Shown: in pieces, positions 18,967-20,278 of the stretch | Numbering within the stretch: the stretch's first letter is position 1 | Layout of the letters: every line of letters begins with the position of its first letter | Virus record (IMG/VR): IMGVR_UViG_2872158770_000004 | Strand: one strand, 5' to 3' | DNA length: 34,669 nucleotides | Source of the DNA: a virus | Taxonomy: Duplodnaviria > Heunggongvirae > Uroviricota > Caudoviricetes | The notes under the pieces: generated by a model | The model's database searches: none | What the model saw: the letters and a program-made list of their open reading frames with translations, nothing else | What the model was told of the DNA's origin: nothing | Translations under genes and position numbers: made by a program

Positions 18967-19184
18967 TATTAGCTCCTTCTGATGCCATTCTATTTCAGGA
19001 AGGAGTGTCCGTTAAACTCAGGCTACCTCACTATGCAGCGCGTGCTGGCGTTTTATCAGGGGAAATTTCAGGAGGCGGTACTGTGAGTAAAATTAGCTAT
19101 CAGGCTTCAATTACCGCTGGTATTCGCATCAAAGGAGAGGAGCATGGAAATAAAACCAGAAGATGAGTTGGTAATGACTCCAAC

Positions 19185-19688
19185 TTATTGATAGTGTTTT
19201 ATGTTCAGATAATGCCCGATGACTTTGTCATGCAGCTCCACCGATTTTGAGAACGACAGCGACTTCCGTCCCAGCCGTGCCAGGTGCTGCCTCAGATTCA
19301 GGTTATGCCGCTCAATTCGCTGCGTATATCGCTTGCTGATTACGTGCAGCTTTCCCTTCAGGCGGGATTCATACAGCGGCCAGCCATCCGTCATCCATAT
19401 CACCACGTCAAAGGGTGACAGCAGGCTCATAAGACGCCCCAGCGTCGCCATAGTGCGTTCACCGAATACGTGCGCAACAACCGTCTTCCGGAGACTGTCA
19501 TACGCGTAAAACAGCCAGCGCTGGCGCGATTTAGCCCCGACATAGCCCCACTGTTCGTCCATTTCCGCGCAGACGATGACGTCACTGCCCGGCTGTATGC
19601 GCGAGGTTACCGACTGCGGCCTGAGTTTTTTAAGTGACGTAAAATCGTGTTGAGGCCAACGCCCATAATGCGTGCTGTTGCCCGGCAT
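19185..19688 (-). CDS. insB: IS1 InsB (made as InsAB' by frameshift)
   Basis: 167-aa ORF from the track. Confidence 0.9.
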
Positions 19689-19882
19689 CCAACGCCATTC
19701 ATGGCCATATCAATGATTTTCTGGTGCGTACCGGGTTGAGAAGCGGTGTAAGTGAACTGCAGTTGCCATGTTTTACGGCAGTGAGAGCAGAGATAGCGCT
19801 GATGTCCGGCAGTGCTTTTGCCGTTACGCACCACCCCGTCAGTAGCTGAACAGGAGGGACAGCTGATAGAAACAGAAGCCAC
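19607..19882 (-). CDS. insA: IS1 InsA
   Basis: 91-aa [43 protein letters not shown]... Confidence 0.92.
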
Positions 19883-19947
19883 TGGAGCACCTCAAAAACA
19901 CCATCATACACTAAATCAGTAAGTTGGCAGCATCACCAAGATGAGTT

Positions 19948-20278
19948 AAGCAATATCGTTTTATTTCCGGTAAAAGAGGATGACCCACGTAATCAGGTTA
20001 ATTTTCTTTATGAACCATCGGAAAGACCATATTGCCATCACGCCTCTGTCCGGGTTGACGAAAAAGAGCGTCAGGTCCGCTGTAAAATCTGCGGTGCGGT
20101 TGTGGAGCCGTTTGACTGGATGCTCTCTGTGGCAAAAAGAGAAACCAGACTGGCAGATGATGTAAGGCTATTGCGCCAGGAGGAACAGGAAAGGCGGAGA
20201 AATATAGAAAAGCTGATACAGATTGAGCGTAACGCGAAAGCGCGGATACGCAGGGCGACAAAATCCAGAACTGAATAA
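19948..20278 (+). pseudogene. 3' part of a roughly 119-aa gene disrupted after codon 9 by IS1 copy 1 (5' part at about 19143..19168)
   Basis: Upstream of IS1: AGGAGAGGAG then ATG GAA ATA AAA CCA GAA GAT GAG TT. Rejoined frame reads MEIKPEDELSNIVLFPVKEDDPRNQ...CHHASVRVDEKERQVRCKICGAVVEPFDWMLSVAKRETRLADDVRLL...RTE*, with Cys/His positions suggestive of a zinc ribbon. Confidence 0.5.

Follow-up and report, generated by a model that had tools for sequence, protein, structure and literature searches.

The window analysed here (the whole stretch of 34,669 nucleotides) is a heavily IS-degraded, Rac-like lambdoid prophage of the Shigella sonnei type. Its genes succeed one another as follows: a truncated integrase, a RecE-like exonuclease, Rha/Ash, a repressor and YdaT; then a DUF1376/YdaU-like protein, a DnaC-like ATPase, DUF977, the split gene discussed below, DUF4014 and HNH; and finally a 221-aa ORF, DUF551, Hok/Gef, DUF1367, DUF1364 and DUF1133. 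Five complete IS600 copies, a sixth IS600 that is itself split, three IS1 copies and one IS630-like element are distributed among these genes, and the repeated ISs alone account for 28.7% of the window according to self-BLAST. One IS600 copy (17767..19030, 1264 bp, minus strand, delimited by self-BLAST and 99.8% identical to annotated IS600) stands between the split gene and the replication-gene operon upstream of it, and also shortens the DUF977 gene (17397..17813) at its 3′ end; the DUF977 product is 138 aa long here vs 140 aa in the corresponding locus of Escherichia coli FDAARGOS_944 (L001). Since the exact 138-aa product is present on 113 S. sonnei contigs of up to 5.04 Mb, the clipped protein indicates that the window is of the S. 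sonnei type.

Other ISs of the region deserve a brief description. The intergenic region that harbours IS600 here contains another IS3-family element in E. coli FDAARGOS_944. The sixth IS600 (25912..26728 and 27978..28427) provides a case of nested ISs, being split by a ~ 1.25-kb IS3-family element (26729..27977) that is 94% identical to an L001 element called ISEc52-like by PGAP. In addition, the integrase gene (1748..2503; 251 aa, with the Arm-DNA-binding domain and the start of the catalytic domain) appears truncated next to an IS600 copy, the RecE-like exonuclease VIII gene (7202..8794) appears truncated beside an IS600 copy, and an IS630-like transposase (DDE_3, 343 aa) is encoded at 12603..13634, between the Rha/Ash gene and the repressor.

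The IS1 copy and the gene it interrupts

The split gene is interrupted by a 768-bp IS1 of the IS1A type (19170..19937, minus strand), the boundaries of which were read from the sequence. The terminal inverted repeats of the IS1 family (GGTGATGCTGCCAACTTACTGAT / GGTAATGACTCCAACTTATTGAT, ~ 23 bp, imperfect) find exact matches at 19170 and at 19915..19937; IRR (19170..19192) begins with GGTAATGACTCC, its start being also read as GGTAATGACTCCAACTTATTGATAGTG, and IRL (19915..19937) ends with ...GGCAGCATCACC (complement of the left repeat, ...ATCAGTAAGTTGGCAGCATCACC). According to the ORF list, insA (19607..19882, 91 aa) and insB (19185..19688, an ORF of 167 aa) both lie on the minus strand, with the transposase running antisense to the interrupted gene. 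The A6C slippery, or frameshift, motif TTAAAAAAC was found in this copy, insB′ being in the −1 frame after insA. Its identity to elements annotated by PGAP as ‘IS1-like element IS1A family transposase’ reaches 99.9% over 768 bp, it differs from the two other IS1 copies of the window by 1–2 nt, and the Pfam families Zn_ribbon_InsA and DDE_Tnp_IS1 match a 99.8%-identical IS1 copy in locus L004.

Both ends of the element abut a copy of the 10-nt sequence AAGATGAGTT (left copy 19160..19169, right copy 19938..19947), for which the chance of a match at fixed positions is ~ 1e-6. The direct repeat reported in the initial annotation is therefore confirmed as a target-site duplication that occurs as a single copy at the empty site described below. 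The third IS1 copy of the window has a 9-bp duplication, and variable duplication lengths have reportedly been described for IS1, to judge by the title of Iida et al. 1985. The second IS1 copy (22686..23453) is without target duplication, its flanks reading GGCGGTTTTTTT | IS1 | TTTTGTCTC. An AT-rich intergenic stretch of about 135 bp 3′ of the Hok/Gef gene, kept in E. coli FDAARGOS_944 (L001 6812..6946), is missing here, and this loss beside the second copy looks like an IS1-associated adjacent deletion. On the S. flexneri-type contig L003, a 91%-identical IS1 variant with a 9-bp duplication lies inside the DUF4014 gene.

The rejoined gene was obtained by removing IS1 and one repeat copy. On the plus strand, its Shine-Dalgarno region (AGGAGAGGAG, 19133..19142, read from the sequence and identical in the IS-free allele of L001) places a first AGGAG 6 nt upstream of the ATG (19144..19146), and this ATG stands 26 nt before the IS1 end. 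The strong ribosome-binding site and start codon proposed initially are thus found in the sequence, although the start had been given as 19143, i.e., 1 nt before the ATG. The 5′ fragment (19144..19169, plus strand) comprises the ATG, 8 codons and the first 2 nt of codon 9, and matches L001 4048..4073 exactly; the 3′ fragment (19948..20278, plus strand) supplies the third base of codon 9, codons 10–118 and the TAA, and is 100% identical to L001 4074..4404. Together, 19144..19169 and 19948..20278 amount to 357 nt (a multiple of 3) and form a single open frame of 118 codons closed by a TAA at 20276..20278, in agreement with the expected stop near 20278. IS1 does split this gene, which had been sized at roughly 119 aa and encodes 118 aa, and the break does concern codon 9, falling inside it (after its second base) and not after it.

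Megablast of the rejoined region against 5426 complete E. coli genomes returned many IS1-free loci. The allele of E. coli FDAARGOS_944 is identical to the rejoined sequence at 357/357 nt (NZ_CP065613.1 5015743..5016099) and is annotated as one CDS in the same frame (WP_000403784.1, ‘hypothetical protein’); an IS1-free allele is therefore already in RefSeq, and the exact alignment to it does not bear out the concern that such an allele might show a different frame. The empty site of this strain reads ...CCAGAAGATGAGTTAAGC... and contains the 10-mer once. With IS1, the site gains 778 bp (768 + 10), so that all 10 bp of the repeat were truly duplicated, as opposed to 9 bp with one fortuitous match. 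A more distant allele, from strain AH19B041, displays 19 nt differences but just 3 residue differences.

Conservation further argues that the interrupted gene is real. The loci retrieved contain 82 full-length, intact copies, which represent 22 distinct alleles with a pN/pS of 0.04–0.16 relative to the window allele; hundreds of E. coli prophages keep the gene uninterrupted and under purifying selection. Against PHROG 1621, a phage protein labelled as being of unknown function, the protein gives an E-value of 3e-56 (residues 1–117 against profile positions 1–120 of 134). In addition, 148 matches were found among 90%-identity clusters, and a profile search of a library of 1.8 billion proteins recovered 1626 representatives of 50%-identity clusters at E ≤ 1e-3. 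Those of the 148 that are named come from Escherichia, Shigella, Salmonella, Klebsiella, Kluyvera and Yokenella, as well as from Serratia, Erwinia, Pantoea, Pluralibacter, Yersinia and Morganella. Using tblastn, 19 of 50,697 phage records were matched, lambda and P22 not being among them. The low pN/pS, the PHROG match and the wide spread of clusters together establish the reality of the gene.

One may still ask whether the arrangement is an artefact, with IS1 misplaced by assembly or the rejoined ORF being open by chance. Indeed, assemblies are often broken or wrongly joined at IS1, which is present in many copies, and the left junction was not found elsewhere: it is absent from the 5426 complete E. 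coli genomes, in which the two matches with at least 80% coverage correspond to other junctions, and from the GTDB species representatives. Against this, the 10-bp duplication is perfect and sits at the exact IS ends, the empty site is exact, and the rejoined ORF is conserved across genera with a pN/pS of at most 0.16. Moreover, the right junction was seen in an independent assembly, since contig ADUU01000004.1 of S. sonnei 53G starts at this IS1 and matches window positions 19169..23278 at 99.8%. Independent confirmation covers the right junction only. Owing to the exact duplication, the empty site and the independently assembled right junction, the artefact is effectively refuted, and its probability appears negligible.

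Fate of the gene and of its remnants

The insertion cuts off the remaining 109 codons from the ribosome-binding site, the start codon and the first 9 residues. The broken codon 9 changes from TT|A to TT-G and still encodes Leu, and the 5′ stump is read as MEIKPEDEL followed by VMTPTY, with a stop inside IS1 at 19189..19191, 15 codons in. On the other side, the frame of the 3′ part is closed by a stop within IS1, and its earliest possible start is a GTG at 20102, after the Cys/His region. As the stump stops in IS1 and the 3′ part has no start before this post-ribbon GTG, the interrupted gene is a pseudogene.

Two ORFs are listed in the 3′ part. The initial annotation rightly mentioned an out-of-frame ORF (61 aa, 19980..20165), for which no match is on record anywhere, but it was not the only one, since an in-frame ORF of 58 aa starting with GTG (20102..20278) is listed as well. 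The latter raises the question of whether a helix-only peptide still keeps part of the function. Three Shigella assemblies list this ORF among their genes (deposited as SS53G_0022 in S. sonnei 53G and also present in S. flexneri K-227), and it holds the most conserved segment of the family. On the other hand, no Shine-Dalgarno sequence precedes the GTG (upstream TGCGGTGCGGTT-GTG), both the zinc ribbon and the N-terminal motif conserved in the family are missing from the peptide, and no promoter is evident for the ORF, which is preceded by an IS1 in antisense orientation. Gene callers output such ORFs by default. We therefore regard a working 3′ remnant as very unlikely and retain the reading of a pseudogene. 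From the annotation point of view, a single pseudogene entry, WP_000403784.1 disrupted by IS1, is the appropriate record for this locus, and the orphan 58-aa and 61-aa ORFs emitted by gene callers are not.

The polarity of IS1 on downstream operon genes is established IS1 biology. By inference, the copy described here would exert a polar block, so that transcripts from the early promoter would not reach the DUF4014, HNH, 221-aa and DUF551 genes. This leads to another explanation, according to which the insertion was selected because gene loss, or the polar silencing of HNH/DUF551, benefits the host, for example by removing a toxic or prophage-inducing product. It is true that the same gene was broken independently elsewhere in Shigella: the copy P0050 is broken after residue 81 (S. 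sonnei, 36 contigs), the copy P0057 after residue 76 (on a 4.27-Mb chromosome), and two S. flexneri-type contigs (L003, 1124; L005, 2952) carry an IS3-family element in codon 44, equivalent to position 20053 of the window. However, ISs are inserted across the whole prophage, with the integrase, the RecE-like gene and DUF977 truncated and more than a quarter of the window made of repeated ISs, and such a dense IS environment leads one to expect repeated breaks of the gene by chance. The gene also remains intact and under purifying selection in E. coli prophages, as mentioned above. Selection of the insertion is thus improbable, if somewhat less so than a functional remnant.

Altogether, a Rac-like lambdoid prophage received an IS1A-type element in codon 9 of one of its accessory genes, 118 codons long, and the 10-bp target duplication was made by this transposition. 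The transposition with its 10-bp duplication and the loss of the intact frame are shown by the sequences, nothing was found that speaks against the insertion itself, and we consider it almost certain that an IS1A-type insertion into this prophage gene produced the duplication and a pseudogene. The event is one of many IS insertions in a decaying prophage and needs no selective explanation. It represents a textbook IS1 insertional pseudogene, ordinary in IS-laden genomes, and it provides one further example of IS-driven prophage decay in Shigella.

Architecture of the interrupted protein

The initial annotation had drawn attention to Cys/His spacing suggestive of a zinc-binding fold. Both C38-H39-H40 and C54-K-I-C57 are present, and zinc binding is plausible, with H39 unlikely to take part. 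All 33 enterobacterial homologs retain C38, H40, C54 and C57, whereas H39 varies, which makes C-x-H...C-x-x-C the likely ligand set. In a 75-member alignment, just C54 and C57 are invariant, while C38 and H40 are conserved in at least 90% of the members, with Q or E in place of H in some. The putative ribbon spans codons C38 to C57 (20033..20092, plus strand), as delimited by conservation, the AlphaFold2 (AF2) model and a sub-threshold match to Zn_Ribbon_TF (PF08271). This match, the sole one in Pfam, scores 21.5 bits (E 1.7e-4), under the 29-bit gathering cut-off, and 12 of the 75 family members match the same profile at E < 0.01, with a best E-value of 1.3e-5.

Downstream of the ribbon, codons 63–115 (20108..20266, plus strand) are predicted by AF2 and conservation to form one long alpha-helix with the terminal basic motif NIEKLIQIERNAKARIRR. 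In the 33 homologs, F15-P16 and the segment L84-R85-x-E-E-x2-R-R-x-N-I-E-K-L-I-Q-I-E-R-N-A-K-A-R-I-R-R are invariant or nearly so, the helix ending in the near-invariant basic motif IERNAKARIRR; D-P-F-D and ERNxKARxRR are retained in the 75-member alignment. The AF2 prediction was run as a monomer with 33 sequences on P0008, which is 96% identical to the rejoined protein. Its mean pLDDT is 72.9 (57–64 for residues 1–40), and it comprises short hairpin strands at 43–46 and 51–54 and a single helix at 63–115, with a pLDDT of 86–91 over residues 81–110. The model sets C38/H40/C54/C57 on two beta-hairpins with a pLDDT of about 72. These elements make zinc binding by a C-x-H...C-x-x-C ribbon plausible, and they support the description of a predicted zinc-ribbon plus long-helix protein.

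Database searches placed the protein in no named family. No NCBIfam named family and no PADLOC anti-phage defence family was matched at E ≤ 10; searches of PDB by sequence, using the single protein or the 75-member profile, gave just ribosomal protein S27e (E ~ 0.5) and coiled-coil noise; and Foldseek found no match at E ≤ 1e-3 in PDB and BFVD. In Pfam, the 75 members and 10 longer relatives matched nothing but the zinc ribbon below threshold, Ead_Ea22 in fusions and coiled-coil noise. Literature searches by accession, PHROG id and C-terminal motif found nothing on the protein. A bZIP-like reading of RNAKARIRR was rejected, since its spacing is unlike N-x2-AA-x2-[CS]R and the basic part is C-terminal to the helix instead of N-terminal, the bZIP motif serving as an analogy only.

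Another feature concerns residues 6–16 (19159..19169 and 19948..19969), an acidic stretch followed by hydrophobic-hydrophobic-x-F-P. This conserved N-terminal peptide takes forms such as EDELSNIVLFP, DDNIIEFP and GEVISFP, is kept in many distant members (not in all) and looks, from its sequence, like a short docking motif. IS1 cuts through it.

Relatives, proposed role and comparison with known systems

The homologs sit in early or nin accessory regions of lambdoid phages. In prophages of Serratia, Yersinia and Erwinia and in the Klebsiella phage ST15-VIM1phi2.1, the homolog lies at the nin region's distal end, where its start overlaps the stop of the RusA, NinG or NinH gene immediately before it and the antiterminator Q comes just downstream. 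In the Stx phage ArgO145 and the Enterobacter phage Tyrion, it comes directly after an Ead/Ea22-like gene, with which it overlaps, and a PAPS-reductase gene lies further upstream; in ArgO145 (L010 2489..3857), the overlap concerns the 3′ end of the Ead/Ea22-like gene. The Ead_Ea22 N-domain is even fused to this module in P0122, P0002, P0043 and P0286–P0289 (254–256 aa). A mosaic structure has been described for Ea22 proteins, in which the C-terminal domains are interchangeable (PMC10834534). Since the 118-aa module is fused to or overlaps Ead/Ea22, its sequence indicates that it is one of these interchangeable Ea22 C-terminal modules. The distant relatives from metagenomes are found where small early genes are closely packed in arrays, in the vicinity of genes for DnaB, RuvC, an integrase or a PAPS reductase, and no constant partner gene was found across the neighbourhoods of the relatives examined. 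A PAPS-reductase-like gene stands 2–3 genes upstream in ArgO145 (L010 1245..3857), in Tyrion and in an unrelated metagenomic phage contig (the other two loci being L009 1662..3896 and L103 2251..4435), and a loose association between this gene and the zinc-ribbon gene is possible.

Regarding its role, the lost protein is a small phage early or nin-region protein, and its anatomy suggests that it would act as a dispensable modulator of early development. Its ~ 50-residue helix would probably dimerise as a coiled coil ending in the invariant Arg/Lys-rich motif, and this basic end would contact nucleic acid or a conserved host protein; oligomerisation and the binding of nucleic acid or of a host protein are purely what we infer from this layout. 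By analogy, and with low confidence, the protein could be an oligomeric adaptor, stabilised by zinc, whose basic helix end binds nucleic acid or a conserved host protein and which thereby modulates early phage development.

On a larger scale, one might tentatively see in these sequences a large unnamed phage early-protein family (~ 1600 clusters at 50% identity), extending beyond Enterobacterales into metagenomic phages and forming a new class of nucleic-acid- or host-factor-binding developmental regulators, a proposal that we consider rather doubtful at present. Such a family may share the C-x-H...C-x-x-C ribbon, the coiled-coil helix with its ERNxKARxRR end and the N-terminal hydrophobic-x-F-P, and its members may be either free-standing in nin or early regions or C-terminal modules of Ea22-type pro-lysogenic proteins. 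The IS1 event adds nothing to this reading. The gene does belong to a widespread, conserved and uncharacterised phage early-protein family, which may merit experiment and of which intact alleles exist elsewhere.

Compared to known systems, the insertion itself resembles classic IS1 inactivation, as seen in E. coli and Shigella pseudogenes: the same 768 bp, the canonical inverted repeats, insA/insB′ with the A6C site, a short duplication, ORF disruption and an AT-rich target (AAGATGAGTT). The difference lies in the 10-bp duplication, at the long end for IS1, for which 8 or 9 bp is usual (PMC12903888).

As for the protein, TFIIB-type and S27e-type zinc ribbons (PF08271 and PF01667) provide its best, though weak, sequence and fold matches, sharing with it two predicted beta-hairpin ‘knuckles’ and four conserved putative ligands ~ 15 residues apart. 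However, the first knuckle is C-x-H here vs C-x-x-C in these ribbons, the scores stay below the gathering cut-offs, and such ribbons are not followed by the ~ 50-residue helix. The TraR/DksA-type regulators (e.g., lambda Orf73) are also small phage proteins that pair a zinc site, putative in the present protein, with long helices, whereas here the domain order is reversed and a single helix replaces the hairpin. Membership of a TraR/DksA-like family was rejected on account of this domain order and since no zf-dskA_traR occurs among the Pfam matches up to E = 10.

With respect to gene position, the gene is often directly downstream of, overlapping or fused to the N-terminal plus coiled-coil module of the mosaic Ead/Ea22 proteins of the lambdoid exo-xis region, and the fusion fits the known domain-swapping of Ea22 C-terminal domains. 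In contrast to these proteins, the 118-aa protein has no PF13935 (a domain present just in fused homologs, e.g., P0122), and the gene lies here on the pR side of the prophage. The lambda Ea22 C-terminal domain has a different, mixed alpha/beta fold (PMC10834534). The accessory nin genes of lambda and P22 (e.g., NinH and NinX) resemble it in position, since in other genera the homolog holds the slot from the resolvase (RusA, NinG or NinH) to the antiterminator Q, but the protein displays no sequence similarity to any Pfam Nin family. Both Ea22-type and nin-region accessory proteins modulate early phage development, which is the kind of role that we would guess for the lost protein.
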